IMG/VR virus record: IMGVR_UViG_3300030330_003102
DNA: 20,000 nucleotides
Direction: 5' to 3' (one strand)
Source: an uncultured virus (IMG/VR IMGVR_UViG_3300030330_003102)
Taxonomy: Duplodnaviria; Heunggongvirae; Uroviricota; Caudoviricetes
The position numbers were made by a program, and so were the translations under genes. The notes under the pieces are model-generated. The model did no database searches, was not told the DNA's origin, and saw only the letters and a list, made by a program, of their open reading frames with translations. Positions within the stretch are counted from its first letter, which is position 1, and each line of letters begins with the position of its first letter. Shown here piece after piece: positions 849 to 17,949 of this stretch.

Positions 849-1016
849 ATTACTGGGATAGCGGTTGGGTACTTAAGGGTTTTGTTGCCTATGTTATGTA
901 GTTTTTCGCGGGACATTTAGTAGTATAATAACTACATAACATTATGTAGGAGCGTATTATTTTTTACTTGACAAAAAAATACATAACATTATGTAGATGT
1001 AATTTGAAAAAAGAAA

Positions 1017-1248
1017 GTTCCCGCAACGCCCCCGCTTCATCAGGGCGGGGTGCGCTTAGGAGGAGCGGTGATGAACCGCGAGAGCGTCAGCATCGCAATA
1101 CTCTCACCCGCACATACGGGCCTTGCCTCCCACTTGGTTAGAGTCAGCGTCAGACTCTTTCGCGGTGCTCCGCCCCAAGCGCGGGGTCTGCACCTTGTGC
1201 CTTCCGTAACCCCCCATGAGAGGCGTTGGTTGGCCCGCCGTTGCAGAC
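1017..1248 (-). ncRNA. Candidate structured ncRNA 1, about 230 nt, family not recognised
   Basis: GC-rich island with a promoter (GAAAGGTTCTTATA, 1271-1284) and a downstream T-tract (1007-1016). The 5' UCUGCAACG can pair with the 3' CGUUGCGGG. It has a multi-stem core homologous to 1380-1612, and G-U pairs favour the minus strand. Confidence 0.7.
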
Positions 1249-1379
1249 AAGGTGAACGAACAGCCCTGAGTATAAGAACCTTTCTATGACTACATAACAT
1301 TATGTATCATCGGCGTTATACGCTTGGATTAAATTACTACATAACATTATGTAGGTGTAATTTTAAGAAAAAGAAAAAA

Positions 1380-1612
1380 CCCCGCCACCTTCCCCTTTCC
1401 ACAGGGGCGAGGCTTCGGAAGGGCTGGCTTGGAAAGCCAGCGAGGTCGCGAACCTCACCCGCCTATACGGGCTTACTTCCTACCTGATGAGCCGTATTTC
1501 ATCTCTCTCAGGCGCGGGGCCGCTCAACCCCTGCTTTTCGCTACCCACCAAATACCACAGAACACTCGCGGAGGTCGTAGGATATTACATCGGTGGGGGG
1601 GTGTCTTGCGAC
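1380..1612 (-). ncRNA. Candidate structured ncRNA 2, about 230 nt, paralog of ncRNA 1
   Basis: Promoter GAAAGGTTCATAAG (1634-1647) with no ATG at the expected start and a T-tract at 1365-1379. It shares the core CCCGUAU-NN-GCGGGUGAG and covarying stems with ncRNA 1. Confidence 0.7.
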
Positions 1613-1703
1613 AAACCTCCGTGTCGTCGTTTGCTTATGAACCTTTCTATCACTACATAACATTATGTAATGTTGGGTCAGTAAGTATAATAACTACATA
1701 ATA

Positions 1704-1750
1704 TATCACCGGAGGACTTACGCGGGCAAGCCCGCCGCCCCCGGATGATA
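1704..1750 (-). terminator. GC-rich 3' hairpin downstream of ORF 1759-2064 (terminator or stability element)
   Basis: Inner GCGGG-CTTG-CCCGC on the minus strand, enclosed by outer arms TATCA/CCGG...CCGG/TGATA. No clear T-tract follows. Confidence 0.5.
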
Positions 1751-2865: not shown

Positions 2866-3519
2866 ATGAGCGACCTACTAGACCGCATCGAACAGAAGAA
2901 AGCAGACATGAGAGAAGCCCGTGCAGGTATGAAGCAGGGCATCAAATACTCCTCGCGCTCGCTAGGAGGACACACCACGCAGTACCGCAAACTGTGCCGC
3001 GAGGCGGGCATTCCAGTTGAGATAACCAAGATTGTCCAAGCAGAGGAGACACCGGCCCCGACCATCGGCAAGCCCTGCCGCTACAAGGCGTGCAAGGGAC
3101 GCAATCACAAGTTGCACGGCGAAAAATGCCCGGTAGCATCAGCGAGAGGCAAAACCGGCGGACTGAACGGCGATGGAGAAGCCAAGCAACGCTTGGGAAG
3201 CACGAACGGAAACTTTAGGGCTGTTAGGCCGTGTGGCTGTCCCATGAGAGCGCACAAGCCCGACTGTGAACACGCTAGACCGGCCAACCGCAAGGACTTC
3301 GGCACTACGGCGAAAAAGGTCAGACAGGTTCTCAATATCCAGTCAATCTCATGGCAGAGCAAGGCTCTCAGCGTGGGTGCAGTTGCACACATGATGAGAG
3401 GTGTCACAGGCGTCTGCTCAGGTTGCAAAGAATCAATCCCGGCTGTACAGGCCGTCAAGGTTCACCCTGACGACATCATGCAGAATCCAGCACGGGTCAT
3501 CTGCGGAGGGTGTGAGTGA
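2866..3519 (+). CDS. Basic Cys/His-rich protein, 217 aa, probably multi-zinc-binding and nucleic-acid-binding
   Basis: Clusters CRYKAC..H..H...C, CGC....H...C and CSGC...H...CGGC; K/R rich; first gene of the rightward unit with its own promoter. Confidence 0.8.
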   Translation: MSDLLDRIEQKKADMREARAGMKQGIKYSSRSLGGHTTQYRKLCREAGIPVEITKIVQAEETPAPTIGKPCRYKACKGRNHKLHGEKCPVASARGKTGGLNGDGEAKQRLGSTNGNFRAVRPCGCPMRAHKPDCEHARPANRKDFGTTAKKVRQVLNIQSISWQSKALSVGAVAHMMRGVTGVCSGCKESIPAVQAVKVHPDDIMQNPARVICGGCE

Positions 3520-3550
3520 CGCTTGCGAGGCACGAACACAACGATAATAA
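3518..3550 (+). promoter_or_regulatory. Class II promoter motif GACGCTTGCGAGGCAC plus TATA
   Basis: Motif starts 55 nt before ATG 3573; AT-rich box at 3543-3550. Confidence 0.85.
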
Positions 3551-3572
3551 ACTGAGGAGTAGTGGAAAAAAT

Positions 3573-3791
3573 ATGAGCAATTGGGAGAGAATAATGGCTG
3601 GCGCATACATTGACGGCGGCTGGATGATAATTAGCGAAAGCACGGTGGGCGTTGATGCCTACGGCTATGAAGCACCCGAAGCAAAGCATGACTGGGTCAT
3701 CTTTCAAGGCGGAGAACACATTGGTGATAAGCCCACACTCGCAGAAGCGAAGAAGTATGCTGACGCGCATTACCTTCTGTGGCCGTTCTGA
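3573..3791 (+). CDS. Hypothetical protein, 72 aa (C-terminal TLAEAKKYA)
   Basis: Start moved from GTG 3516 to ATG 3573 on promoter spacing. Confidence 0.8.
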   Translation: MSNWERIMAGAYIDGGWMIISESTVGVDAYGYEAPEAKHDWVIFQGGEHIGDKPTLAEAKKYADAHYLLWPF

Positions 3792-3792
3792 T

Positions 3793-3826
3793 GACGCTTG
3801 CGAGACACGAAGGGAACAATTAAAAG
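3793..3826 (+). promoter_or_regulatory. Class II promoter motif GACGCTTGCGAGACAC plus TATA
   Basis: 55 nt before ATG 3848; ATTAAAAG at 3819-3826. Confidence 0.85.
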
Positions 3827-3847
3827 GAACGACGGAGAGGAGAAAAT

Positions 3848-4027
3848 ATGGCAATAGCACTAATAGAAATGACGATAGACTACAACACACCGGCAGAGGA
3901 GTTTGACGCTTTAGGCGACAAGTACCCTACGGGAGAGTACAGAGAGGAAACCGGAACCTACTGGTTCAGGGTGACTATCACAGGAGACTCTACCAACGGT
4001 GTGAAACTGACATGGTTCAAGGAGTGA
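3848..4027 (+). CDS. Hypothetical protein, 59 aa (absent from the ORF track)
   Basis: MAIALIEMTIDYNTPAEEFDALGDKYPTGEYREETGTYWFRVTITGDSTNGVKLTWFKE; has its own class II promoter and fills the gap between genes. Confidence 0.8.
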   Translation: MAIALIEMTIDYNTPAEEFDALGDKYPTGEYREETGTYWFRVTITGDSTNGVKLTWFKE

Positions 4028-4039
4028 GAAGGTGAGCCG

Positions 4040-4411
4040 ATGAGTATTCCTGAGCGACTATCCCACCTGAATGACTGGTTTGCCGAGGGCATACTATTAC
4101 AGGAAAAATACCTTGAGGAAATAGATGAACTAGAGGTGTGGGACTTCACCCACAACCTACTAGGCAGGGTGGCTTACAATGCTCTGTACACCGTTGCTAG
4201 AGAGGAAGGTCTAACGACCCATGAGGCGGCAGAGTTCTGTACTAGCAAGTGGATAAGACATCATGAGGAGTACCTACAGGCTATCATCACACAGGCTATA
4301 CAAGCGAGAGGACAGGCACGGAAGGCCGGTGACGACGGAGAAGCAAACTTCTTTGCCTACCTAGACTCCTACCGCAACTCCTTCGACGAAGCGGAGAGGT
4401 GTTCTGTATGA
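4040..4411 (+). CDS. Hypothetical protein, 123 aa
   Basis: GGTGA Shine-Dalgarno just upstream; lies in an operon-like run. Confidence 0.8.
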   Translation: MSIPERLSHLNDWFAEGILLQEKYLEEIDELEVWDFTHNLLGRVAYNALYTVAREEGLTTHEAAEFCTSKWIRHHEEYLQAIITQAIQARGQARKAGDDGEANFFAYLDSYRNSFDEAERCSV

Positions 4412-4474
4412 CTGAGCGAATATCCAATGCTGAATACTGGTTATCACCAATCGCCTTCAAGAAGGAGAATCAAC

Positions 4475-4507
4475 GACGCTTGCGAGACAGGAACACAAAG
4501 TATAATA
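4475..4507 (+). promoter_or_regulatory. Class II promoter motif GACGCTTGCGAGACAG plus TATA
   Basis: 56 nt before ATG 4531; GTATAATA at 4500-4507. Confidence 0.85.
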
Positions 4508-4530
4508 GCGAGATAGACAGAGGAGATAAT

Positions 4531-4827
4531 ATGACAACAGAGACACAACCCGAAACACCAGCAGACCTGTACAGAGTTAGGTTGCAATACCACCACCTGA
4601 CTAAAGCACAGGTAGAGAAGTTGATGATGGTTCTACACGACAGCCCCTTTGGGATGCCTAAGACACACGACCAATACCCTCAGATGGCTAATATGGAGTG
4701 CCAAATATGCCCACCTGTGTACGAAACCGCAGAAGAAGTAGAATGGGACTTTGACCCTAGAGGAGACGAGCAAATCCAAATACAGATAGTGACACACGAT
4801 GGAATCAACCCAGTAGAGGAGGAGTAG
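4531..4827 (+). CDS. Hypothetical acidic protein, 98 aa (in-frame alternative start at 4408)
   Basis: Promoter spacing supports 4531; an ATGA overlap with the previous stop makes 4408 possible too. Confidence 0.75.
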   Translation: MTTETQPETPADLYRVRLQYHHLTKAQVEKLMMVLHDSPFGMPKTHDQYPQMANMECQICPPVYETAEEVEWDFDPRGDEQIQIQIVTHDGINPVEEE

Positions 4828-4829
4828 AT

Positions 4830-5054
4830 ATGACGGGGTATATCCACTACAAGAACAAGCACAACGGACGAATCGTTTCCCTAGTGGAGACTAAGATAAC
4901 CGACACAGGCAATCAGATACACAAACTGAAAGACCTCAATGACGGTGTTTCAAACTGGACTTCTAACTACGACCTCCATGAGCATTGGGAGTCCTATACT
5001 GACGCTTGCGACACACATTCCAAAACTTCAAATACAAGTGAGGAGGAGGAGTAA
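4830..5054 (+). CDS. Hypothetical protein, 74 aa
   Basis: GAGGAGGAG Shine-Dalgarno upstream; its 3' end contains the promoter of the next gene. Confidence 0.7.
   Translation: MTGYIHYKNKHNGRIVSLVETKITDTGNQIHKLKDLNDGVSNWTSNYDLHEHWESYTDACDTHSKTSNTSEEEE
5001..5034 (+). promoter_or_regulatory. Class II promoter motif GACGCTTGCGACACAC plus TATA
   Basis: 56 nt before ATG 5057; TTCAAATA at 5027-5034. Confidence 0.85.
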
Positions 5055-5056
5055 AT

Positions 5057-6042
5057 ATGACAGGAAACATAATGCCAGCATACGCCCTACTAGGGCAAGA
5101 AGCAAAAGGAACGACAGCCGAGGAAGTCCTCGCTAACGCGGGACTGGACTTTGAGGTAGCACGCGCTCCGTCGGGGTATATTGACCCTAAGACTAATGAG
5201 TTTGTGAACCACAGAGGTCACAGTATCACCTACCGTACAGACACCAATCAATGCTTGGGTCATGTCGGCGGTACTTATCAGGTAGTACAGAACATAGACG
5301 CACTAAAGGTCTTTGACCGGATAGTGGGTGAAGGTAATGTAGAGTATGACCGAATCGGAATGATAGACGGTGGCCGCAAGATGTTCGCCAGCATGAAGTT
5401 GAACGAAGGGTTCAGCATCGCTGGTTGGGACGATGTTGACCAGTACCTCTACATGATAACAAGTCACGACGGCTCTACTGGCGTGCGCTACATCCCTGCT
5501 AATGTCCGCATCGGATGCACTAACCAGTTTGCCTACCTAGAGTCCATGCTCAAGGAAGCGGGCATCAACCCACGCATCCTATCTAGCCGACATTCAAGGC
5601 TAGTTGACCAGCGCATTGACGAGGCTATCGCGGCCCTGAAAGTCACAGACCAACTCAACGAGCAGTTCTCACACAGAGCCGCCGAGTTGATGCAGGTCGA
5701 ACTGGATGTAGCAGGTAGAACCGAGTTCTACATTGACGCTATGGGCCTCAAGACCGACGAGAAGTTGGTGGATAAGGCTGACAACCCCTTCGGCCTCACT
5801 ACACGCGGCAACAACACACTAGACCGCCTGTTTGAGTTGGAGGAGGCAGACACCAACACGACTAACGGAATGGCTGGCTCGGCTTGGGCCTCCTTCAATG
5901 TCGTCACCGAGTACCTTGACCACGCATGGGTCTATGACCGCAAGGGCGAGAAGGTCAATGAGAAGCGCGTAGAGAGCGCACTACTCGGCACAGGCATGAG
6001 GACTAAGGACAGGGCATGGCGAGCCGCCGCACGCCTTGTCGC
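5057..6042 (+). CDS. DUF932 / TIGR03299-type phage/plasmid protein; the true stop probably lies in the N gap
   Basis: Family-like segments EVLANAGLDFEV, YRTDT..CLGHVG..YQVVQN, IDGGRKMF, YLYMITSHDGS, VRIGCTNQ, SAWASFNVVTEYLDH and C-terminal LLGTG..TKDRAW. Translation past the gap does not look like real protein. Confidence 0.85.
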
Positions 6043-6117
6043 NNNNNNNNNNAGGAGGTTAAAAGAGGTTCGACACGGAGGCCCGTCGTATATGCGGCTG
6101 ACGATTCATCGTGCTTC

Positions 6118-6312
6118 CTCCCTCCCCCACCTATATTCACAGTAAAAATAACATTCACATAAGGAGGGCAGGGAGTTAAACAGGCCGAAAAGATGTATGT
6201 TGAGAGTCGTACTATCCTTGTTCTTAGGGATGCTTTCTGTTTGTGTAAACTTACGACATATCATCAGAAATCTAATTGCCTCTCCCTCCCTCCACCTATA
6301 TTCACAGTAAAA
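6118..6312 (+). repeat. About 30-bp direct repeat CTCCCTCCC(T)CCACCTATATTCACAGTAAAA at 6118-6147 and 6282-6312
   Basis: Read directly; the two copies are identical apart from a 1-nt indel. Confidence 0.9.
6163..6293 (+). ncRNA. Candidate ~130-nt stem-closed small RNA; a related partial element lies at 6053-6128
   Basis: 5' GGAGGG-C-AGGGAG-TTAAAC-AGGC pairs with 3' GCCT-CTCCCT-CCCTCC. Internal stems GTCGTA/TACGAC and ATCCTT/AGGGAT; G-U pairs favour the + strand. Confidence 0.45.
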
Positions 6313-6326
6313 GTAAGGTGAAAAAA

Positions 6327-6815
6327 ATGAGTACCGGAGACATGAAAAGAGACAAGTGGTGGAGGAGGAAGATAGCAAACAGGACTATCTCATTTGAGGA
6401 CAGCGCAGGGCTACTACCTATGGCCGAAGGCGGTTGGGCAGAGCGACGCTGTGTGCTTGACGACCCAAGCATAACCTGCGTAGATAGGAGGACTTTGGTT
6501 GCTCCTAAGTGCAAGTGTAAGAGTACACGCGGAAGAAAAATGAAACTATTACTTTCACCGGAAACTTATTTTCGCCAGTTCATCGCAACAGGCTCATGGG
6601 TACAAATCCGTAGGGTACAGGGATGGCTCTGTACCAACTGTGGTCGTATCGAGGAGCATGGTTGGGGCAGAGTGGGCGTAGTAGCGGCGCGTGGAAGGGT
6701 CACGGATATGCTCTACGAGAATGCGAGTTTGGTTCCCGACGAGTTGGCTCACCTGATACCGGAGGACGCTGACGAGTGGTTCAATCTCAACCCTATGGAG
6801 ACACAGAATGAGTAA
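6327..6815 (+). CDS. Hypothetical zinc-ribbon protein, 162 aa
   Basis: ATG 6327 follows an AAGGTGA Shine-Dalgarno; CKC...CTNCG motifs. Confidence 0.75.
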   Translation: MSTGDMKRDKWWRRKIANRTISFEDSAGLLPMAEGGWAERRCVLDDPSITCVDRRTLVAPKCKCKSTRGRKMKLLLSPETYFRQFIATGSWVQIRRVQGWLCTNCGRIEEHGWGRVGVVAARGRVTDMLYENASLVPDELAHLIPEDADEWFNLNPMETQNE

Positions 6816-6927
6816 TCGTTGTTCAAATCCGTCGCACGGACGCTTGGTCGGAGAGGGCCGATGTAGAATCTGCGACGCTTCCGAAGCACGAAAGAAAACT
6901 ATAAAAATAAAGGACGAGGAGGAGTAA
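6808..6927 (+). CDS. 39-aa putative zinc-binding microprotein (absent from the ORF track)
   Basis: MSNRCSNPSHGRLVGEGRCRICDASEARKKTIKIKDEEE; overlaps the previous stop, has GGAG upstream and a Cx4H...CxxC pattern. Confidence 0.5.
   Translation: MSNRCSNPSHGRLVGEGRCRICDASEARKKTIKIKDEEE
6874..6906 (+). promoter_or_regulatory. Class II promoter motif GACGCTTCCGAAGCAC plus TATA
   Basis: 56 nt before ATG 6930; CTATAAAA at 6899-6906. Confidence 0.8.
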
Positions 6928-6929
6928 AT

Positions 6930-7610
6930 ATGACGAACGAATGGAGCCACTATGTAGGCGACCCCTGCTATGTGATAGACGATGACCGATGGAGCGACTT
7001 CTGTGATGCTCTATGGGCTGAACAACACCGAAGAAAGACGGAGTTTGAGGAGAGAACAGGAAAGGAAATCAGCGCCTACTCCTTTTACCCCGTCATCTTA
7101 GACTGGGAATACAAGGACGAGGACGGCGACACTAACATAGCCGAAGTCGAGGTACATAACAGTCCCTTTGGCGACGGCTGTTGGGGCTTCGGTGACACCG
7201 TGAGAGGTATGACAGGATGGGTGGCCGGAACGGAGTTGGGCGTTGATGCCGGACTCCTTGCCGTCGTGCCAAGAGAAGCCGTAGAGCGAGATAACATGGG
7301 TGATGCTGAACACTTAGGCATCCTGTTTAACTGCTATCCCGACCTTGAAACCGGAGAAAACTTGGCCGGTCATGTTCTGTTAGATGGGTTTCATCCTGAC
7401 GGCTACATGGAATGCGACGACTGTGGCGAGGCCACAGACGAAGGCAATATGTGTTGGTGTGACAATTGTGGAGCATCCTCTTGTTCCTCCTGTTGGGGTT
7501 CCTGTGGTTGCTCTGAGTGTGAGGACTGTGGTAGTTACTACGAAGAAAGATACAGTCACTACGACTATATATGCAACGACTGTGGAGAACTAAGAGAGGA
7601 GGAGGAGTAA
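6930..7610 (+). CDS. Acidic phage protein (YVGDPCYV...GDG...GVDAG motifs) with a Cys-rich C-terminal tail, 226 aa
   Basis: The N-terminal motifs resemble a widespread uncharacterised phage family (DUF4241-like; recalled, not searched). The tail has CDDC, CWCDNC, CSSCWGSCGCSECEDC and CNDC. Confidence 0.8.
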   Translation: MTNEWSHYVGDPCYVIDDDRWSDFCDALWAEQHRRKTEFEERTGKEISAYSFYPVILDWEYKDEDGDTNIAEVEVHNSPFGDGCWGFGDTVRGMTGWVAGTELGVDAGLLAVVPREAVERDNMGDAEHLGILFNCYPDLETGENLAGHVLLDGFHPDGYMECDDCGEATDEGNMCWCDNCGASSCSSCWGSCGCSECEDCGSYYEERYSHYDYICNDCGELREEEE

Positions 7611-7612
7611 GC

Positions 7613-7843
7613 ATGGGTTGGGAGGTACTAATTAACGACTCATGGAGGTTTAGGTTTTCCTTTTTCTGTAATACTATTGACCGAGCCTTTGGTGATGTTT
7701 TCTACCTTGACTGTGGGAGTATTGAGGAATTTTATGAGGTATGGGCAGAATTGAGCCTACCCGACCCAAGACGCATGACCGCTGACGAAAGGTGGGAAGC
7801 GATAGAAAAAATGCGTGCGTACATAGAGGGGGAAGAAGAATGA
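7613..7843 (+). CDS. Hypothetical protein, 76 aa
   Basis: ATG 7613 follows a GAGGAGGAG Shine-Dalgarno and the previous stop. Confidence 0.75.
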   Translation: MGWEVLINDSWRFRFSFFCNTIDRAFGDVFYLDCGSIEEFYEVWAELSLPDPRRMTADERWEAIEKMRAYIEGEEE

Positions 7844-8133
7844 GTGATAAGGAGTACCTTAACGACCACTACCACGACCGACTCCATGAGGAGGCTATCG
7901 CTACCTGCGAGCATGAGGACTACACAATCACTAGCATAGACAATGTAAGGACTCACGACCTGAGAGGACACAAGATGAAAGAGCCTGTGGTCGAGGTCGA
8001 AGTGACCTGTGACTTTTGCGGTAAAACTAACTATGGCGAACTACCCCTTGAACAAGTGCTTGACCTTCTCAACAACTTTCTATATGACTATCGGCTGAAC
8101 TGCACAATCCAAGACGACGGAGCGTGGGGCTAA
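7840..8133 (+). CDS. Hypothetical zinc-ribbon protein, 97 aa
   Basis: ATGA overlap at 7840; CEH...CDFCG. Confidence 0.75.
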   Translation: MSDKEYLNDHYHDRLHEEAIATCEHEDYTITSIDNVRTHDLRGHKMKEPVVEVEVTCDFCGKTNYGELPLEQVLDLLNNFLYDYRLNCTIQDDGAWG

Positions 8134-8234
8134 TGGCGACCAAGAGGCAAAGAGCAGCGCAACGGTGGCGCTACAATCAGAAGTATAAATCGAGAGTCAA
8201 ATCCGGTGAGAAGAATAGCCGTAAAAGTAAGTGA
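8133..8234 (+). CDS. 33-aa highly basic peptide (absent from the ORF track)
   Basis: TAATG overlap; MATKRQRAAQRWRYNQKYKSRVKSGEKNSRKSK. Confidence 0.5.
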   Translation: MATKRQRAAQRWRYNQKYKSRVKSGEKNSRKSK

Positions 8235-8239
8235 GTAAT

Positions 8240-8273
8240 AACGCTTGCGACACAGGAACGAAAACCCTAAAAG
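8240..8273 (+). promoter_or_regulatory. Class II promoter motif AACGCTTGCGACACAG plus TATA
   Basis: 55 nt before ATG 8295. Confidence 0.8.
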
Positions 8274-8294
8274 CAAACACCTCTAGGACTAATT

Positions 8295-8516
8295 ATGAGA
8301 AGGAGCATGAAACAGACGCTACACTTTGCTGATTGTAAGAGATGTGGTATCGCTGAATGGATAACCGTAAATGGAAGTATAATCGGAGACATACGCTTTG
8401 AAGGCCAAAAGTATGAGCCGGAAGAAATATGCACAGAGTGTGCGTCAGAGTTGATAGACAAAATAGTAAATAGATGGATGACAAATAGAGGATATACAGA
8501 GGAGGACAGAGAATGA
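8295..8516 (+). CDS. Small zinc-ribbon protein, 73 aa
   Basis: CKRC...CTEC; has a class II promoter. Confidence 0.75.
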   Translation: MRRSMKQTLHFADCKRCGIAEWITVNGSIIGDIRFEGQKYEPEEICTECASELIDKIVNRWMTNRGYTEEDRE

Positions 8517-8755
8517 GTAAATTATCAGGAGCAATCCAACGACTACAAGACCTACAAGACGAACTACAACAGTTAGAAGAAACACGCGACGCTATCTATG
8601 TGGCGTTAGACGCGATAGAAAACGCCGACTGTGCTTTCAGTAGCACCGGACTCGGTCAAGACCTGTCGCATCATGCGTCAATGGAGATAGAAGAATCTCT
8701 CTGCATGGTTGATGAACGAATCGAGGAAATAGAAGGGGCGGCTGAACAACTATGA
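8513..8755 (+). CDS. Acidic coiled-coil protein, 80 aa
   Basis: ATGA overlap; heptad-like LQDLQDELQQL. Confidence 0.75.
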   Translation: MSKLSGAIQRLQDLQDELQQLEETRDAIYVALDAIENADCAFSSTGLGQDLSHHASMEIEESLCMVDERIEEIEGAAEQL

Positions 8756-8979
8756 GAGCAAAGACCGTTCCTCATGTTGAATACGAAATCTTCAATCTGA
8801 TACTTGACGAGATAGATATTTCTATGCTAAAAGAACAGATGTGTCCGACGGGAGATGATGTCGCACTTACTCGCTTTGAGAAGGGCGCGGCATCGGCGGC
8901 ACAACTGATACAGAATCTAATCGAGAGGCGTAAGCACAGGCTACCTCACGACCACTTGGACTACGAGGTGAAGGAATGA
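8752..8979 (+). CDS. Hypothetical protein, 75 aa
   Basis: ATGA overlaps at both ends. Confidence 0.75.
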   Translation: MRAKTVPHVEYEIFNLILDEIDISMLKEQMCPTGDDVALTRFEKGAASAAQLIQNLIERRKHRLPHDHLDYEVKE

Positions 8980-9245
8980 CTAAGCACGAAGGAATGATGA
9001 AGCACATCTCACGCGGCAGACGCAACAATCGGGGGAGACTAGTCTTCGACAGAATCTGTGGTACTCCTGTCTCTGAAAAGGGCGAGTATGTATCTGATGA
9101 GGAGTGGAGCAAATTACCTGAGTGTCCTGAATGTTTTGGTAAAAATAACTTCACGCTTGCACCACAAGAACCCAAAGTAGATAAGTGTGAAGCACAACCG
9201 AAAATCATAACACAGGGTCTGTACCTGCGACAATACTTGGAGTGA
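8976..9245 (+). CDS. Hypothetical protein, 89 aa, possibly zinc-binding
   Basis: GAGGTGA Shine-Dalgarno and ATGA overlap; H...CG...CPEC. Confidence 0.7.
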   Translation: MTKHEGMMKHISRGRRNNRGRLVFDRICGTPVSEKGEYVSDEEWSKLPECPECFGKNNFTLAPQEPKVDKCEAQPKIITQGLYLRQYLE

Positions 9246-9249
9246 AAAA

Positions 9250-9444
9250 ATGTACAAAAAAGAATGGATAGAATACTACGAGTTCCTTGAGATGCTAAGG
9301 CAATCGGGAGCAACGAATATGTTTGGTGCGGCTCCGTATCTTGAAAAACACATGGGTCTTGATAGGAAAGAGGCACGCGCCGTGTTAAACTCATGGATGG
9401 AGAACTACGACGCACTATTAGAGGACGGGGTGATAGTACGGTGA
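9250..9444 (+). CDS. Small conserved phage protein with LRQSGATNMFGA motif (DUF5049-like), 64 aa
   Basis: The LRxSGxTNMF motif is recalled from phage hypothetical proteins; GGAGTGA Shine-Dalgarno upstream. Confidence 0.75.
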   Translation: MYKKEWIEYYEFLEMLRQSGATNMFGAAPYLEKHMGLDRKEARAVLNSWMENYDALLEDGVIVR

Positions 9445-9764
9445 CTAGAAGAAAGTATCGCGCAATCAAGGGCTTCACAGTCAAGGGTTGGTGGCAGTTG
9501 GCTAGTGCGGCCCGCTACCTACAAGATGTCGGGGAAGCGACTTCACGCGAAATCGTAGAACACGCAAGAGCGAAAAATGGTTCACGGTTGGGTTTGACGG
9601 TAATGGAGATGTCGTCCCGTATGGCTAAACACAACTCGTTTAAGAGCAGAAAGGTGGACAGAAACAAAGCAACTCCTGTCAGGTGGTCACTAGCCAACGA
9701 CAACATTTTCTTAGAGAATCCTAACGATAAAAATACTCGCGTAAAGAAGGAGTGGAAAGAATGA
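9441..9764 (+). CDS. Basic winged-helix-like protein, 107 aa
   Basis: GTGA overlap with a GGGGTGA Shine-Dalgarno; YLQDVGEATSREIVE helix pattern and a terminal RWSL strand. Confidence 0.65.
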   Translation: MTRRKYRAIKGFTVKGWWQLASAARYLQDVGEATSREIVEHARAKNGSRLGLTVMEMSSRMAKHNSFKSRKVDRNKATPVRWSLANDNIFLENPNDKNTRVKKEWKE

Positions 9765-9964
9765 GTGATACAAAGTGGATATTGTTCGCCAAGAGGTCAT
9801 CGAGAGATAACTGCATAGGTAAAGGTAGAATCCTTGACTGTCGGCTAAATAAAAGAGGAGTGGAGTTTGTGGAAGGGTTTTTGTTGGAAATAGACATGAC
9901 GCTAGACGGTGTTAGGTTTGCCGGTACTTTAGCACCAGTATGCAAACAGGATGAGGAGGAGTAG
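9761..9964 (+). CDS. Hypothetical protein, 67 aa
   Basis: ATGA overlap at 9761 with a GGAG Shine-Dalgarno. Confidence 0.65.
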   Translation: MSDTKWILFAKRSSRDNCIGKGRILDCRLNKRGVEFVEGFLLEIDMTLDGVRFAGTLAPVCKQDEEE

Positions 9965-9965
9965 T

Positions 9966-10220
9966 ATGAGCAGACCAATAACAGTCTTAGAACTGTCAGA
10001 GGCGTTAGATAAAATGCTACAAGAAGGAAAGGGTGACTACCCTATCTGCGTTGCTTTCCGTTGGAAGGGCGACACCGTTATGTCCGACATCACATCATGG
10101 TGTCTTAACGGTAATAGTATTCAACTAAACGAGGAGGACTTTATGCGCCATGCGACACTCTTGAATGAGTTAGGGTATGATACAAGCGTCATAAGCGGAA
10201 TACCTACAAAGGATAGGTAA
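9966..10220 (+). CDS. Hypothetical protein, 84 aa
   Basis: ATG 9966 after GAGGAGGAG; N-terminus ITVLELSEAL...GDYPI. Confidence 0.7.
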   Translation: MSRPITVLELSEALDKMLQEGKGDYPICVAFRWKGDTVMSDITSWCLNGNSIQLNEEDFMRHATLLNELGYDTSVISGIPTKDR

Positions 10221-10225
10221 GACAA

Positions 10226-10327
10226 ATGAAAACTTGTAGCGTGTGTAGGGGCCGAGGATTCACAGTAGTTTCTGCCGCTTGCGGAGAGAAAGAAATCGAA
10301 CAATGTATGTGGTGTAAGTATGAGTAA
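10226..10327 (+). CDS. 33-aa zinc-finger microprotein (absent from the ORF track)
   Basis: MKTCSVCRGRGFTVVSAACGEKEIEQCMWCKYE; CxxCxGxG...CxxC; fills the gap between genes. Confidence 0.6.
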   Translation: MKTCSVCRGRGFTVVSAACGEKEIEQCMWCKYE

Positions 10328-10556
10328 GTTTGAGGAAAAAGTAATAGAAAAAATCATGGAGCGAGCCAAAGTAGGCGAAGGCAAATACGGCGTCACGATG
10401 GAAAGGAAAGACCTCAGTATCGTTGAGTGGTTGGTTCATCTCCAAGAGGAACTGATGGATGCCGCCGTCTATGTAGAGCGTCTGATAGCAGACTGTTCAT
10501 GTCACATACACGGCACAGAACCGGAACAGGGATGTCCTTACTGCCGACGCTTGTGA
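10320..10556 (+). CDS. Small MazG-like / all-alpha NTP pyrophosphohydrolase-like protein, 78 aa
   Basis: R..VG..KYGVT..R.DL...WL.HLQEELMDAAVY contains the EExxD acidic motif; C-terminal CSCHIH...CPYC. Confidence 0.6.
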   Translation: MSKFEEKVIEKIMERAKVGEGKYGVTMERKDLSIVEWLVHLQEELMDAAVYVERLIADCSCHIHGTEPEQGCPYCRRL

Positions 10557-10579
10557 GGCACAACCGAATACTTTAAGTG
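10546..10579 (+). promoter_or_regulatory. Class II promoter motif GACGCTTGTGAGGCAC plus TATA
   Basis: 55 nt before ATG 10601; TTTAAGTG at 10572-10579. Confidence 0.85.
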
Positions 10580-10600
10580 TGGTATAACCCTCGGAGATAT

Positions 10601-10855
10601 ATGAGACACAAGAGAATAAGAAGGACTCTACTACAAACCCTGCGGGAAAATCCCGAAGGGTTGACAGCAATTCAAATCATGGACAAACTCGACAAGAAGA
10701 AAAGGGCTAAGGTTAGTAATGCAAAACATATCGGCGTTCTACTTCGTGGTCTGAAAGGAGTAAAGAAAATGAGAGAGGTGGATATTCATAGCGATGTGTA
10801 TAGGTACAAAGTCAATGTTTATTATTACGATGAAAATGAAGGAGCAGAAATATGA
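10601..10855 (+). CDS. Basic winged-helix-like protein, 84 aa
   Basis: Start at ATG 10601 by promoter spacing; LLQTLRENPEGLTAIQIMDKL. Confidence 0.75.
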   Translation: MRHKRIRRTLLQTLRENPEGLTAIQIMDKLDKKKRAKVSNAKHIGVLLRGLKGVKKMREVDIHSDVYRYKVNVYYYDENEGAEI

Positions 10856-11112
10856 AGAAGTACAGAGACTACTTAGATGAAAAAGAGAGAGAAGCGGCAG
10901 AGCCTAAGAAGGTGTTTCCCTACACAGAAAACGATGAAGTGAATCATCTAAGGCAACTGGTCGAGGATATGACTAGATGGATGAGTATAGGTTCCTACGG
11001 TCAAAAGACACCGCAGAACATGGTGAGAGAGTTCAAGGAGACGATGAGTAAGGCTAACACCATCGTGAGACAGAATAAGTGGCAGAGGGAAAACAATGGA
11101 AACATTCGTTGA
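10852..11112 (+). CDS. Hypothetical protein, 86 aa
   Basis: ATGA overlap and GGAG Shine-Dalgarno. Confidence 0.75.
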   Translation: MKKYRDYLDEKEREAAEPKKVFPYTENDEVNHLRQLVEDMTRWMSIGSYGQKTPQNMVREFKETMSKANTIVRQNKWQRENNGNIR

Positions 11113-11968
11113 GATAACACCTAAAGAAACCGAGGTGACATACGCCTATGAATATCAAGACATAAAATACAAAACCAAACTACAGCCTGAGATAAGACTT
11201 TTTGACGGTAAAAATAACTACACAATCACGGATAGATACATTCTCTATCGCTTCCTTAGATGCCTAGACCCCGAACTTAGGTATCTTGATATGATGCTAA
11301 CCATCTATGATATGGGAATTGATGAGCGACCAAGTTTAGCCGACATCATACAGGGATATTTGTATAATACTAATACGGAAAAAGTAAGTATGTGGGTAGA
11401 TGGTGAAAAAATTGTTTTAGTAGAAGATGACAACAACACTTACAGTAAATATTTCCAGACCACTATGGACTACATAGGTGCTAACTTCCTACCGGACTAT
11501 GTTCGTTCCATGCGCTACATGAAGGCAGGTAACAAGGACAGAAAGTTTCCCGTAATGGTGTTCACCAAAGTAAAGGCTCTCGGTAGAATCAAGATAGAAA
11601 TAATATCCTACAATCAAAAGACTTTCATAGCCGGAAGATACAGACCACACACACAACAGACAGCAGATACAGGCAAGACCTTTTGGGTTCAACCAAGACC
11701 CGTAGGGTTCTGCCCCCGTTGGGCGCACCTGATACCACATACTGCCCTCAAGGTAATGCTAGACGACTTCCGTGTGCTTGAGAAGATGGGTGAATTAACT
11801 AAGGGTAGCACATTGGTTGGTGGCGGTGGAGCATCAGACCGACTAGATAGATGGAACGAAAGAAATAATTTAGAAGCAGAAAATATGCATAGGTTTGACC
11901 GTAAAACTATTGACGAACTCAAGTATTACGCAGATATTTGGGATTCTTTCAGTTTTGAGGAGGAGTAG
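11096..11968 (+). CDS. Hypothetical protein, 290 aa
   Basis: Long ORF; no motif recognised. Confidence 0.85.
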   Translation: METFVEITPKETEVTYAYEYQDIKYKTKLQPEIRLFDGKNNYTITDRYILYRFLRCLDPELRYLDMMLTIYDMGIDERPSLADIIQGYLYNTNTEKVSMWVDGEKIVLVEDDNNTYSKYFQTTMDYIGANFLPDYVRSMRYMKAGNKDRKFPVMVFTKVKALGRIKIEIISYNQKTFIAGRYRPHTQQTADTGKTFWVQPRPVGFCPRWAHLIPHTALKVMLDDFRVLEKMGELTKGSTLVGGGGASDRLDRWNERNNLEAENMHRFDRKTIDELKYYADIWDSFSFEEE

Positions 11969-12116
11969 AAAAATAATAAATCGTGGTACTGCTCCCCACT
12001 TTTCTAATTCTTCAATTACTTCAAAGGTAGTTAAGTTAAGGTAAGGTATCTAAAATACCTATGAAGAAATAGAATAAATAAACAATAGGCTCGCAGTACA
12101 GCGTTTTATTATTTTT
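11969..12116. repeat. 148-bp AT-rich nested inverted repeat
   Basis: Outer arms 11969-11992 and 12093-12116 match at 21/24. Inner arms TTCTAATTCTTCA (12002-12014) and TGAAGAAATAGAA (12062-12074) match at 12/13. A small AGGTAT/ATACCT hairpin lies inside. Confidence 0.8.
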
Positions 12117-12149
12117 ACGCTTGTGTCACAGAATGAAAACAATTAAATG
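12116..12149 (+). promoter_or_regulatory. Class II promoter motif TACGCTTGTGTCACAG plus TATA
   Basis: 56 nt before ATG 12172; ATTAAATG at 12142-12149. Confidence 0.75.
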
Positions 12150-12171
12150 TGTAATAGAAGGAGGGAGAGAT

Positions 12172-12609
12172 ATGCCTAGAGCGCAGAATAAACGAATGCA
12201 ACACAGGCTCTATCTACGCTTAGTAGAGAAGGGGCCACAGAGTACACAAGACTTACTATTGTGGTACAACCACGAAAGACCACAGATGTCAAAGCACACT
12301 AAGGGCGCACAGCACGGTGCATCAGTACATGAGTTGGGTGGTTGCCTTTCATCGTGTATCTTGTTTGAAAAAATGGGTACAGTACCGAGAGAAAAGGTCG
12401 AGGCATTCATCGCACATAGCCAAGAGCCAAACAATCAAGGTAAGTTCTTTGAAACATTCTCTAGGCGTTCAGCATACGAGATAGCGGTATGGAAAGCGAG
12501 GCCGATGGATGAGGCAGTAGAAAGGGCCATAGCATCAAAAAGACCAATCAAAAAATACCCACACTTTCTACAAAAGGAAATCAACAAGAAGATAGGTGAT
12601 ACACAATGA
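12172..12609 (+). CDS. Basic winged-helix-like protein, 145 aa
   Basis: Start at ATG 12172; LVEKGPQSTQDLL...SVHELGGCLS...VWKA. Confidence 0.7.
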   Translation: MPRAQNKRMQHRLYLRLVEKGPQSTQDLLLWYNHERPQMSKHTKGAQHGASVHELGGCLSSCILFEKMGTVPREKVEAFIAHSQEPNNQGKFFETFSRRSAYEIAVWKARPMDEAVERAIASKRPIKKYPHFLQKEINKKIGDTQ

Positions 12610-13379
12610 AGGTCATAGACAGTAGAGGAGATACTGACTTCGTGTGGGAACGCGAAGTAGAAGTAGAGCCAACAACCCTTATCGCATACTATCAGAACGA
12701 ACAGGGCTTTGCCTCCTTCATCGCGGGCGCGAGCCTGATAGGAGATGGTGAGCCCGTGTGTAGCATCCTCTCAAAGTTGCACCAAGTAGAGCCAATGAAT
12801 ACAATCCCTGCCCCCACCTTCCCTGAATGGAGACTCTATGAACTCCGCAACGAAGATGGTCGTCGTTATTTTGTCTTAAGAATAAATCACGCATACATTC
12901 CCGCACCCAATCACACTAAGGCGTGGCTGTATAACTATCCTGTGTTCCGTGACATCGTGACCGTACTTTCTGAGAAGGGAGTGGATGAATTAGTTTATCT
13001 TACGGCAAATATAATGCAAGAATATATTTATCAAGAACAGGCACAGATACCCTCAGATGAATTACTTGTGTACGACTATGATGAAAAAGATGACTCGTTA
13101 TTTTTGACTGACGGTACAGACCTTGCTTACCAAGACCTTGACATACCTCCGCCTTCATGGATAGTGGCTGAGTGTTTTGAAAAGTTCAACACTAATCCCG
13201 TGCGTGGCAACTACATAGTCTTATGCGCAAATACCGCTACTACATTCATCAATGAGAGGGAAGCAGAAAGGTTGTTGCAGTTTCTTGAGGACACACACGC
13301 TCTGATGTACGACGAAAAGTATAAGGGCGAGTTGTTAGAGGTTCTGTATGACGCAGAGGCATCGCAGGTGGTAGAATGA
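12606..13379 (+). CDS. Divergent PAC2 (proteasome assembly chaperone)-like protein, 257 aa
   Basis: Ordered segments match the PAC2 pattern: PTTLIAY...GFASFIAGASLI, WRLYE, IVTVLSEKGVDELVYL, INEREAERLLQFLE. Judged by eye, so remote homology only. Confidence 0.55.
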   Translation: MKVIDSRGDTDFVWEREVEVEPTTLIAYYQNEQGFASFIAGASLIGDGEPVCSILSKLHQVEPMNTIPAPTFPEWRLYELRNEDGRRYFVLRINHAYIPAPNHTKAWLYNYPVFRDIVTVLSEKGVDELVYLTANIMQEYIYQEQAQIPSDELLVYDYDEKDDSLFLTDGTDLAYQDLDIPPPSWIVAECFEKFNTNPVRGNYIVLCANTATTFINEREAERLLQFLEDTHALMYDEKYKGELLEVLYDAEASQVVE

Positions 13380-14713
13380 CCTTCAACATTTTCGATAAAA
13401 CTATTGAGTTTGCGAGGAAAAATTACTTCGTGGAAGTAGAGGACAAAATCCCAATCTTCCTGTGTAGTATCGGAGGACACATCTTCAACTGCCTGAACAA
13501 GTGTAGTCGTTGCGACTTTGACCCTGACAGCCCGCTAGTGAACGAGGAGGAGGACTTTGTGATAGAGAATTGTCCGTTGAGACATGACAACATCCCGTTC
13601 TACACCCCGATGTCACAGTTGCCTGACACGCGCATACACATACTAATGAGAGGCGCAAAGGGTTCAGGTAAATCTGTCTTAATACTAATGTTCCTTGCAG
13701 AAGGAACAGGACTCGTTCATTCTCCTACTGCTGACTTAGGGCAGGGCTTCCGCACCATGATGGGCGCTAACTCTATCACAGAAGCAGGTATGTTCGGCTC
13801 GGTGGATGAAGAAGGGGAGATAGCGGGGCGACCTATCGCCCGTGAGATGTGTGGTGGCTTCCTCGGCTTTGAGGAGTTTTCTTCAATGTCGGATGCCTCT
13901 AAGAAAGACCACAGCCTAGACATGAAGAATCAATTACTTACCAGTTTAGATAACGGTAGGGTACAGAAGGCTCTACGGGCCGGATGGGTGAATTATACTA
14001 CTCGCTATACCGTATGGGCGGGAACACAGCCCGCAAGGTTTGAGTTGGACTCAGGGCTTGACCGTCGTTTCTTTATCATAGATATAGAGATGAACCCTGA
14101 AAAAGAGAGGCAGTACAAATTGGCTCAACACGCCCAAGCAAATATGAATAATGAGGAGAGAGTTAAATTGGCTAATCTTAATATCCAAATCAAAGACTGG
14201 ATAAGACAGAGAATGCACGCGGCTGTCTCTAACCCACCAACCGGCATCATTTTTGACGACGACATCATGGAGTGGATAGACAGACCTGATGTGCGTTCCT
14301 TTGAGGCCGACTTGTTCCGTCGTATGTGTATCGGGTACGCTATGATGCAACCCGACTATCAAGGTGGTGGTCCACTAATCATTAAACTTGATGATAGACT
14401 TAAGGCAATACTAAATCAATCACTTGCTATGAGAAGGAGAGTCATGGATGCAGATGTCGAACTGATACGCTCGGCGTTTTGGATGAAGGATGTTCCTAAG
14501 TCGCAACTACTCAAAGAGATAAGCCGCATGATAACATCCGGTGACTATCAAACAGCGAAGCGATGGTTGATAGAAAATCTTGAGGGGCAGGGTTGGTATC
14601 AAGAAGTAGAGCCAACTGTTAAAAGACGCGGGCGTAAAGGAGTAATATGCCGCTTTGGGCCTGTATCAGAAGCAAGCGCAGCAATTGACTGGGGTGATAA
14701 AAATGCCGAGTAA
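13376..14713 (+). CDS. MCM-like AAA+ ATPase (putative helicase) without the canonical N-terminal OB domain, 445 aa
   Basis: IHILMRGAKGSGKS (Walker A), GANSITEAGMFGSV, GGFLGFEEFSSM (Walker B variant), LLTSLDNGRVQKALRAG (presensor-1 hairpin), VWAGTQP (sensor 1), GLDRRFFII (Arg finger). Confidence 0.75.
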   Translation: MTFNIFDKTIEFARKNYFVEVEDKIPIFLCSIGGHIFNCLNKCSRCDFDPDSPLVNEEEDFVIENCPLRHDNIPFYTPMSQLPDTRIHILMRGAKGSGKSVLILMFLAEGTGLVHSPTADLGQGFRTMMGANSITEAGMFGSVDEEGEIAGRPIAREMCGGFLGFEEFSSMSDASKKDHSLDMKNQLLTSLDNGRVQKALRAGWVNYTTRYTVWAGTQPARFELDSGLDRRFFIIDIEMNPEKERQYKLAQHAQANMNNEERVKLANLNIQIKDWIRQRMHAAVSNPPTGIIFDDDIMEWIDRPDVRSFEADLFRRMCIGYAMMQPDYQGGGPLIIKLDDRLKAILNQSLAMRRRVMDADVELIRSAFWMKDVPKSQLLKEISRMITSGDYQTAKRWLIENLEGQGWYQEVEPTVKRRGRKGVICRFGPVSEASAAIDWGDKNAE

Positions 14714-15038
14714 TCCAATATATGACCGAAGAAGTCCACAGTACCGACCTGACTATGTTTTTCCACACAATGAAACTGCGTGGTGGCAAAAGAATAATAA
14801 AAATCCTGTCGTGCGTGCGTTGGTTCACTATGCTCTTACGCTAAAAGAACCTTTCACAATACACAAACTTCAAAATGAAGCAAAGTATATGAACGGTAAT
14901 CTTATTTGCGCTAGTGGTAGAATGTCTCCGGGTATAAATAAAATCAGGGCTATGATACGGCTGTGTGGGTACTTCAAAAAGAGTGAAGAAAAGGTGGTCG
15001 TGGGTACTTCAAAAAGGTGGCTGTGGGTGAGAAAATGA
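14703..15038 (+). CDS. Basic winged-helix-like protein, 111 aa
   Basis: ATG 14703 after a GGGGTGA Shine-Dalgarno; EPFTIHKL...KIRAMIR...LWVR. Confidence 0.7.
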   Translation: MPSNPIYDRRSPQYRPDYVFPHNETAWWQKNNKNPVVRALVHYALTLKEPFTIHKLQNEAKYMNGNLICASGRMSPGINKIRAMIRLCGYFKKSEEKVVVGTSKRWLWVRK

Positions 15039-15652
15039 GAAGTAAGAGAGAGATACAACAGAGGCTCGCATCTGAAAATGATGCTTTCGCCATAGAAGTC
15101 CTACGGTGGGTTCTTACTGGTGGTTGTGAGGTCTGCGAACACAAAGAAAGAAAGGAAATAGAAATGGATGTCTATAATGGCTCGGTTTCCCCTGCGTATC
15201 TTGAGGCTAAATATAACTGGCCCGACGGCCATGTTATGAACCACATGGATGCTCACCTTGACTATGACCCGCGTGAAGCACAACACATAGAGGAGGCACG
15301 AAGCCAAAGCATCAACACGCTAGATGCCGCCGAGGACATCGTAAATCGTATCACTACCTATCTTGATGAGTTGGAAGCCCTCAAGGAAGCAGAAGGTGGT
15401 ATCACATCTGACTTCGTAACTGATGCGGCGCGTCTTATCGCACAGGCTAATACTTCCTTAAAATTAGTAGGGACTCTCAAGAAAGAGATAGGAGTTGATA
15501 GCCAACTACTTCTCGCCCATACTCAACTGAATGAGGTTAGTCGTATCTTAGTGGAGGTTCTATCAGACCAACCAAAACTATTAGATGATGTGGAAAGAAA
15601 ATTAAATATGCTAAGTACACCAATTGATGTCCCATACGAGGTAGTAGAATGA
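15035..15652 (+). CDS. CxxCxH-HTH-HxxxH protein with a helical C-terminus, possibly terminase-small-subunit-like, 205 aa
   Basis: CEVCEHKERKEIE...LEAKYNW...VMNHMDAH; ATGA overlap and GGGTGA Shine-Dalgarno. The function is tentative. Confidence 0.55.
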   Translation: MRSKREIQQRLASENDAFAIEVLRWVLTGGCEVCEHKERKEIEMDVYNGSVSPAYLEAKYNWPDGHVMNHMDAHLDYDPREAQHIEEARSQSINTLDAAEDIVNRITTYLDELEALKEAEGGITSDFVTDAARLIAQANTSLKLVGTLKKEIGVDSQLLLAHTQLNEVSRILVEVLSDQPKLLDDVERKLNMLSTPIDVPYEVVE

Positions 15653-15918
15653 GAAAGTGGAGGAGCAAACCTACTAAGTATCTAGCAACAAGAGCGATAA
15701 CGAAAGAAGAATATCCTAAGTTAATCGAGGCTATGAAGGAAGATGGTCTTATCGCAATAATAACTGCCGAGGGAATAAAGTGGTATCACGGAGACTACAA
15801 GGTGACACAGAGTGTGGTGCGTGGTGTTTGGAATCTTTCAGTAGGGCAGATGAAAAGAATCGTGAAATACATATACAGTTATGACCCGTTTGTGAGTGAA
15901 GAAAATGGTGAAGCATAA
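15649..15918 (+). CDS. Hypothetical protein, 89 aa
   Basis: ATGA overlap and GAGGT Shine-Dalgarno. Confidence 0.75.
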   Translation: MRKWRSKPTKYLATRAITKEEYPKLIEAMKEDGLIAIITAEGIKWYHGDYKVTQSVVRGVWNLSVGQMKRIVKYIYSYDPFVSEENGEA

Positions 15919-16168
15919 GTTAGCACGACGCGCACTACAAGTGTGGGCTAAACACAAAGGAGAACGCTTCACTACTGATGAGGCGATGCAGTATCTTGAC
16001 AGTAAAAATACTAAATCTTACTCAGTATCTCAAAAACAACTAAACAATATATTAGGAAAGACTAAGAAAGTTAAAAGCCGTGATGGTATAATGTATGGTT
16101 ATAGGGGAGAGTTGATAAGACAACCTCAAGGTCAGCGAATGATATGGGAGTATATCGAATATGAGTGA
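15905..16168 (+). CDS. Basic winged-helix-like protein, about 87 aa
   Basis: GERFTTDEAMQYL...SQKQLNNILG...IWEY; start uncertain (15896 or 15905). Confidence 0.7.
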   Translation: MVKHKLARRALQVWAKHKGERFTTDEAMQYLDSKNTKSYSVSQKQLNNILGKTKKVKSRDGIMYGYRGELIRQPQGQRMIWEYIEYE

Positions 16169-16286
16169 GAACGAGGAATGGTGTATCGAACACATGGGCG
16201 TAATGGCCTTTTGGAGAACAGGAATTAGTATCGTAAATCTATTCCTTACATTTATTATTGTCTTAAAAGTATTTGAGGTTTTGTGA
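16161..16286 (+). CDS. 41-aa single-pass membrane peptide (absent from the ORF track)
   Basis: MSENEEWCIEHMGVMAFWRTGISIVNLFLTFIIVLKVFEVL; overlaps both neighbours (TGATG at the 3' end). Confidence 0.6.
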   Translation: MSENEEWCIEHMGVMAFWRTGISIVNLFLTFIIVLKVFEVL

Positions 16287-16945: not shown

Positions 16946-17133
16946 TTGGATTATTATATACTATTGTTGGTATAATACTATTATGTTTTTTTGGTTGGTT
17001 TGTTATATGTTTAGATAATTTCTTTAACGGTAAAAGTAACACAGTAAATCCGCAAGAAAATTTTACGCTTGCGCAGCACGAAGAATCGTTTATTAATGGT
17101 ATGATTTGGGCCGATGTGGGGAACGACTTATAA
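16936..17133 (+). CDS. Small membrane protein, 65 aa
   Basis: Hydrophobic N-terminal 25 aa; overlaps the previous stop. Confidence 0.55.
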   Translation: MAIIGLLYTIVGIILLCFFGWFVICLDNFFNGKSNTVNPQENFTLAQHEESFINGMIWADVGNDL

Positions 17134-17135
17134 AT
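17064..17135 (+). promoter_or_regulatory. Tandem promoters for gene 17157: a class II motif (TACGCTTGCGCAGCAC plus TTTATTAA) and a second TATA (TTATAAAT, 17128-17135)
   Basis: Motif-to-TATA spacing matches the other class II sites; the second TATA is 22-29 nt upstream of the ATG. Confidence 0.6.
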
Positions 17136-17156
17136 GCCATACGCTAACACTTATAC

Positions 17157-17555: not shown

Positions 17556-17578
17556 TACAACAGTAGGAGTATGAATAT

Positions 17579-17946: not shown

Positions 17947-17949
17947 ATC

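Follow-up and report, generated by a model that had tools for sequence, protein, structure and literature searches.

Two homologous RNA genes, RNA A and RNA B, lie on the minus strand of a 20,000 nt stretch of DNA (the window) that belongs to a tailed virus infecting marine archaea, and each fills its own one-gene promoter cassette. We are highly confident that they represent a real functional non-coding RNA family. The defining feature of this family is a 6–7 bp pairing between the loops of two neighboring hairpins, which is recoded in RNA B.

The carrier virus and its cassette array

Judged by gene content, the carrier is a magrovirus-like archaeal virus. The window contains DUF932 and clamp-loader ATPase genes, and the whole tested stretch is contained in eight sequencing runs, all of them marine metagenomes and each a possible source of the window; DNA runs holding small shares of the stretch were left out of this reading of habitat. 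A relative that also carries the RNA (G001; record of 68.5 kb, 99% complete) encodes a PolB whose best matches are Halorubrum tailed viruses, as well as a clamp loader, chaperonin, portal and terminase. This combination of archaeal-type replication and head-tail genes, from marine samples, agrees with the magrovirus gene set in the available portion of PMC5434244. We read the carrier as group C-like, a placing drawn from gene content and not from a tree that includes reference genomes. Runs of unknown bases near positions 6045 and 19580 break the DUF932 gene and the gene at 18879–19595.

The locus L158 is identical in sequence to the window, and through it positions 1–2900 are recognized as the right-hand end of a cassette array, with one gene per cassette, bounded by a terminase gene on one side and a conserved 217-aa gene on the other. 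Half-sites of a palindromic repeat number 30 in positions 1–2900 and 0 in positions 2901–20000, and all four protein cassettes within 1–2900 have 21 nt between a TATA-like 8-mer and the ATG. Repeat-borne promoters are also present in halovirus HF2, a tailed archaeal virus with promoters in intergenic repeats; the likeness is limited to cassette design, and the HF2 abstract reports no RNA genes like RNA A or B (PMC8707807).

Several other features of the region were noted. The 217-aa protein (2866–3519, plus strand) is basic, Cys/His-rich and conserved, has no Pfam match, and is a candidate binder of the palindromic repeats; its gene adjoins the array in every relative retrieved along with it. 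The array is only ~1.7 kb long in L156 and L181, compared with 5.3–8.9 kb in other relatives. Between 3186 and 17082 on the plus strand, a different repeated motif of 18–32 nt precedes several genes (families D2 and D6) and is possibly a second class of promoter or operator. Behind the stop codon of a 114-aa gene lies a small element of stem, hairpin and stem that carries a conserved GUAAG bulge (1708–1743, minus strand), and similar elements lie behind different genes in L124, L183, L184, L121 and L157.

Two RNA genes in one-gene promoter cassettes

An earlier note on this DNA had described two minus-strand modules with the layout repeat, TATA-like box, body, U-tract and repeat, and all of these elements were located in the window (Table 1). 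It gave the RNAs a length of ~230 nt; the structured RNA stands, and the length is about 240 nt. The putative promoters follow the spacing of the protein cassettes closely, with 21 nt from the 8-mer to the predicted start in RNA B (G1612) and 22 nt in RNA A (G1248), and members of the family in other viruses also have a GU start ~21–23 nt after a TATA-like box. The promoter and leader of RNA B match those of an A-type member in L124, which indicates that promoters and bodies are shuffled between members.

Table 1. Positions of RNA A, RNA B and their cassette elements in the window
Feature	Position	Strand	Remark
RNA A gene	1007–1248	−	~242 nt, counted from the predicted start through the U-tract
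RNA A variable 5' domain	1186–1248	−	own closing helix P0, 1242–1248 with 1186–1192
RNA A core	1020–1185	−	P1 to P7
RNA A P1	1181–1185 with 1020–1024	−
RNA A P2	1175–1180 with 1132–1137	−
RNA A P3	1126–1130 with 1059–1063	−
RNA A hairpins P4 and P5	1080–1121	−	variable insertion
RNA A P6 hairpin	1065–1079	−
RNA A loop L6	1069–1075	−	in hairpin P6; first kissing partner
RNA A 3-nt linker	1056–1058	−	UAA
RNA A P7	1026–1055	−
RNA A loop L7	1036–1042	−	second kissing partner; 7 Watson-Crick pairs with L6
RNA A U-tract	1007–1016	−
TATA-like box, cassette A	1271–1278	−	protein-cassette spacing +1 nt; predicted promoter activity
16-nt palindromic operator-like repeat, upstream of A	1291–1306
16-nt palindromic repeat, downstream of A	980–995
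RNA B gene	1368–1612	−	~245 nt; from fold and held-out model match
RNA B variable 5' domain	1519–1612	−
RNA B core	1381–1518	−	P1 to P7; also has P2 and P4–P5
RNA B P1	1514–1518 with 1381–1385	−
RNA B P3	1476–1480 with 1417–1421	−
RNA B P6		−	6 bp
RNA B loop L6	1429–1435	−	recoded
RNA B linker	1414–1416	−	GAA
RNA B P7	1387–1413	−
RNA B loop L7	1396–1401	−	recoded in step with L6; 6 Watson-Crick pairs between them
RNA B U-tract	1368–1379	−
TATA-like box, cassette B	1634–1641	−	putative promoter
16-nt palindromic repeat, upstream of B	1654–1669
16-nt palindromic repeat, downstream of B	1338–1353

The cores of RNA A and RNA B align with a score of 112, compared with 45.8 ± 7.6 in shuffles, and none of 500 shuffles aligned as well, in agreement with the claim that the two are homologous. 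The 5' domains align unclearly (22.5 versus 12.6 ± 5.4; 24 of 500 shuffles as good). The 5' domain of RNA A is near-identical in L154 and L184 and differs in other members. Over its full length RNA A is 75–77% identical to single copies in other viruses, and RNA B is more distant; a recent tandem duplication was rejected because RNA A is closer to those single copies than to RNA B. Hairpin P4 is nearly identical in RNA A (1101–1121) and RNA B (1452–1472), both on the minus strand, and differs in all other members, and the rest of RNA A is closer to L154 and L184 than to RNA B; local conversion between the copies is possible.

The reading that these stretches encode small proteins and that their structure is incidental is largely refuted. 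Spurious open reading frames of 57–90 codons overlap both modules and would favor it. However, no shared frame is open across the members (the longest sense ATG frames span 0–44 codons), stops fall in differing frames, the start position has no ATG, and the columns that pair covary. The comparison of homologues thus came out on the side of RNA.

A search with the 4227 families of Rfam 15 returned 0 matches in the window and 0 in five homologue loci, and the earlier reading as a promoter-driven structured viral RNA family of no recognized class is supported; at E up to 10 there were 6 and 5 weak matches, all far below the gathering threshold. Resemblances to sequence words of the pistol and hammerhead ribozymes, RNase P and the lysine riboswitch were dropped, as Rfam did not confirm them.

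Homologues and covariation

Thirteen viral and 29 metagenomic loci around the 217-aa gene were collected, and members were found in L154/L182, L184, L183 and L124. A first covariance model, trained on five A-type sequences with RNA B held out and run on 58 sources, matched RNA B with 62.4 bits (E 1e-16), L149 with 66.3 bits and L147 with 63.3 bits. A second model, run on 80 terminase loci, gave ten matches at E below 1e-7, nine of which are copies of known members; the tenth, L264 (33.9 bits), is the single new member. The family comprises nine distinct sequences.

In the nine-row alignment, 98.0% of 298 cells hold standard pairs, compared with 47–52% in slid controls, 24 of 34 pairs have changed on both sides, and none of 500 shuffles reaches the observed pairing; this alignment was fitted to the structure, five of its nine rows are close kin, and relatedness alone can beat shuffles. 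The held-out cases therefore weigh more, and RNA B, L149, L147 and L264 all fit the family model. The compensatory changes proposed from the two copies are thus borne out across the family, and the structure is kept across viruses with 78–100% terminase identity.

Searches with looser descriptions yielded no further members. Loose hairpin patterns in viral contigs gave chance matches only (120 and 19 loci); with two tighter patterns the yield was 5 and 4 loci, two of each being known members and the rest lying in unrelated sequence. A 21-base pattern in genome contigs gave eight bacterial matches with at most 17.3 bits under the model, which were taken as chance. The weak model matches L269 (12.5 bits) and L153 (10.2 bits) proved on reading to be terminator-like motifs. 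A phage collection gave no match to the region beyond one of 25 bases, and plasmids gave no match for RNA A.

Secondary structure of the core

Minus-strand folds are more stable than those of shuffled sequences for both RNA A (z −2.63; 2 of 200 shuffles as good) and RNA B (z −2.54; 1 of 200), and the plus-strand folds are worse (z −2.16 and −1.39). Every stem listed in the earlier note is present in the minimum-energy folds of RNA A and RNA B, but that structure was incomplete, as it missed a long-range closing helix and the loop-loop pairing. The linker motif given there as NAAGC is corrected to UAA in RNA A and GAA in RNA B.

The core is a four-way junction, closed by P1 immediately 5' of the U-tract. 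P1 is followed by P2, a single purine and P3, which carries P6; a 3-nt linker with AA at its end then leads to P7, whose first pair is an invariant G-U. Conservation of sequence is concentrated at the junction, and elsewhere it is shape that is conserved; the few invariant unpaired bases of the family are mainly the two A residues of the P3–P7 linker. P4 and P5 vary freely among members. Both are absent in L264, which keeps everything else and is a natural minimal member; folded alone, it forms P1, P2, P3, P6 and P7 (z −4.09) with new pair types. The whole core appears in four of eight members folded alone, and L183 forms all but P1; L154, L184 and L149 adopt a different minimum-energy fold with only parts of the core. 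A possible K-loop in the P2 tip of RNA A was dropped for lack of conservation, as was a UGAAA loop that some members have.

Since P4 and P5 are variable and missing in L264, a cloverleaf is not the core, and the earlier suggestion of a cloverleaf or tRNA-like core is not supported. A tRNA-like cloverleaf decoy is accordingly very improbable: the upper P3–P6 junction does carry three hairpins in eight of nine members, but L264 lacks P4 and P5, there is no CCA end, the helix continues into the linker and P7, the would-be T-loop is used in the loop-loop contact, and ARAGORN finds 0 tRNA or tmRNA genes in the window.

The compact multi-junction fold with a pseudoknot could also suit a ribozyme or a ligand-sensing RNA, a reading we consider improbable. 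Very few unpaired bases are invariant, Rfam gives no ribozyme or riboswitch match, and the RNAs do not have the conserved catalytic core of any known small self-cleaving ribozyme class. The lysine, purine and cobalamin riboswitches also have junction arms closed by kissing loops. Unlike them, RNA A and RNA B have no conserved binding pocket and do not lie in the leader of a regulated gene; each has its own promoter and U-tract, and the gene downstream has its own promoter and differs between viruses.

Loop-loop pairing

In all nine members the P6 loop is complementary to the P7 loop, with at least six contiguous pairs. UUCAUCA pairs with UGAUGAA in RNA A and UUUCCA with UGGAAA in RNA B. L264 carries a third variant, in which one pair is swapped and one is a wobble, and in L147 a single mismatch lies at the edge of the pairing. 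Among 40000 random loops, with loop boundaries set from the structure, those pairing as well numbered 3 for RNA A, 55 for RNA B, 108 for L264, 133 for L147 and 86 for L149. Comparative sequence evidence thus shows covariation in support of the L6–L7 pairing, which comprises only two independent change events (RNA B and L264).

In RNA B, P6 is longer by 2 bp and distal P7 is shorter, a compensation that is expected if arms of similar length meet within one molecule. We infer a bundle of arms lying side by side in a single molecule. Pairing between molecules, giving rings or cages in which the A and B codes keep assemblies separate, appears improbable. The codes do match poorly: L6 of RNA B pairs over only 2–3 bp with L7 of any other member (3 bp with that of RNA A), and L6 of RNA A pairs over 5 bp, two of them wobbles, with L7 of RNA B. 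However, arms of matched length, together with the compensating change of length in RNA B, fit a contact within one molecule. The pRNA of phage phi29 builds rings by loop pairing between molecules. An RNA of that type, needed for packaging, would be expected in every genome of the group, whereas the present RNA occurs in only 5 of 14 complete arrays; its absence from the other nine, and from both of two further 99%-complete genomes, makes a packaging role unlikely.

The loop-loop contact has a local counterpart in the Alu domain of the Bacillus SRP RNA, in which helices 3 and 4 are joined by five consecutive loop-loop pairs in a protein-free form. Both RNAs have two neighboring helices, a short linker and a loop-loop pseudoknot, but RNA A and RNA B differ in having a four-way rather than three-way junction, longer arms and UAA or GAA in place of the UGU linker; they also lack helix 5 and the S domain and have a different domain order (comparison with the accessible part of PMC4231752). 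An Alu-like RNA would use its two helices, short turn and pseudoknot to bind a ribosome factor site and tune host translation. This reading shares the local topology, including that of the protein-free domain in that part of PMC4231752, but Rfam returns no SRP match at E up to 10, and RNA A and RNA B carry their large domain on the 5' side where a 3' position would be expected; together with the architectural differences this makes it improbable.

Distribution and exchange

Fourteen loci span the whole array; the RNA is present in five (L158, L154, L145, L149 and L147) and absent from nine. Carriers are scattered over a terminase tree of 31 rows chosen from the available loci, and the nearest sisters of L154 do not have the RNA. 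Of 28 further virus records one matched; two of the 28 are 99% complete, and neither of them did. Only the window virus has two copies. In L178, which is 95% identical over 3 kb of flank, the same slot holds another GU-starting cassette without a long frame. No array protein is confined to carriers of the RNA. The RNA gene is accessory, and viruses acquire it, lose it or swap it through cassette exchange.

Such patchy presence, with promoters and bodies shuffled between members, might also mark a selfish or nearly neutral passenger spread by cassette recombination. This is quite improbable, as there is a single copy per record in all three carrier records searched whole, no transposase or reverse transcriptase among the genes of the window or 14 tested genes of G001, and retention of the structure across viruses that have diverged in their terminases.

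Other cassettes may hold unrelated RNAs. The L178 cassette (3298–3606, minus strand) is a third RNA candidate of ~310 nt in the A/B slot, with a fold z of −1.27. A second, unrelated candidate of ~290–350 nt occurs in L124 (6490–6777, minus strand) and L157 (~7575–7230, minus strand); it has a GU start 21 nt after a TATA box and shares 82–84% identity in two blocks, its fold z is only −1.41, and it has no Rfam match. A promoter-based scan found more GU-starting cassettes without an early ATG frame in L157 (7075, minus strand) and L287 (8149, minus strand).

Possible transcripts in marine RNA libraries

Three RNA libraries from one study are among the 20 runs listed in the search, which was made with the window stretch itself. 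All three contain contigs that match RNA A without mismatch: 1021–1182 at depth 44, 1043–1248 at depth 14 and 1054–1215 at depth 38. Other contigs with at least 99% identity have a depth of 3–5 (1746–2062, 1821–1977 and 857–1021), so that the depth of 14–44 over RNA A compares with ~3–5 on a neighboring protein gene; strand, ends and level of a transcript cannot be read from contigs, and some DNA may be present in the RNA libraries. For one of the RNA-library samples there is also a DNA run, and it has no contig over RNA A. No contig covers RNA B in any of the three RNA libraries, which is not taken to mean that RNA B is silent, as the strain there may lack it. These data hint that RNA A is abundant as a transcript. 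The 5' ends had been predicted at 1248 and 1612, and one RNA-library contig begins at 1248, in weak agreement.

Possible function

A free-standing RNA of ~240 nt would be made from a host-type TATA promoter, beginning at the position where neighboring cassettes start leaderless mRNAs and ending in the U-tract. The 3' two-thirds would fold as the four-way junction, in which the neighboring arms P3–P6 and P7, each ~10–11 bp, are joined at their tips by 6–7 loop-loop pairs, and the 5' domain, the P2 tip and P4–P5 would be interchangeable parts around this core. Early in infection this RNA, abundant and stable, may then work in trans and tie up a host RNA-binding protein, nuclease or defense sensor as its decoy or ligand, much as adenovirus VA RNA does. 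The early timing and action in trans, like the anti-defense role proposed in the earlier note, are inferred from position.

Our tentative preference is for a decoy that presents its shape to a host RNA-binding factor. This reading follows from the conservation of shape over sequence, the few invariant unpaired bases, the lack of a dedicated viral partner and the accessory-like turnover; its basis is the position and apparent abundance of the RNA and the elimination of other readings. The partner of the RNA could also be a core viral protein that all these viruses have in common.

Alternatively, the knotted core may be a stabilizing or docking module for a variable 5' domain that works as a host-RNA antisense guide or protein sponge. 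The 5' domains differ between subfamilies around a kept core, and those of L149 and L147 keep A-rich single-stranded words that are repeated twice. However, most 5' domains are themselves paired up, and a search of viral DNA for antisense targets found no complement to the RNA above chance. We regard such a guide or sponge as unlikely.

A shape-based decoy has a precedent in adenovirus, where VA-I and VA-II are tandem. The VA RNAs are stand-alone, abundant, GC-rich structured viral RNAs, as RNA A/B would be too, but the former act in a eukaryotic host on PKR and the latter belong to a virus of an archaeal host; the decoy role is an analogy and no homology is expected (available portion of PMC6599070).

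RNA A and RNA B are a real but uncatalogued family with a new fold, within a known broad kind of virus-borne structured RNAs. The phage-borne RNAs manA, wcaG, ROOL and GOLLD are multi-junction, pseudoknotted and of unknown function. RNA A/B share the viral location, multiple junctions and pseudoknot, but differ in belonging to an archaeal virus, in their fold and in having no Rfam match. Literature searches returned no description of the family. Keyword searches of magrovirus papers found, in the passages returned, nothing on non-coding RNA genes beyond tRNAs, and the term non-coding is absent from the main text of PMC5434244 as available. The searchable supplements of PMC10690425 contain neither the four contig ids nor the core motif; its other parts may list an unnamed candidate.

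Implications

It is possible, if rather doubtful, that these RNAs are RNA-only effectors of host takeover or anti-defense, the first in archaeal viruses, with a core locked by kissing loops, exchangeable domains, paralogues that act independently through non-matching codes, and membership in one of several RNA families swapped through one slot. If so, two versions of an RNA would fold and act independently in one cell by means of non-matching loop codes, and the family would be one of several swapped through the same early cassette slot. The fold would be a new architecture for RNA structure work. It is also accessible in vitro, as a compact RNA with a tertiary contact defined by covariation, a minimal member in L264 and a natural loop swap between RNA A and RNA B. 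The hosts of magroviruses are uncultured and include some of the most abundant archaea in the surface ocean. Identifying the partner of the RNA would point to a host factor whose neutralization these viruses require.
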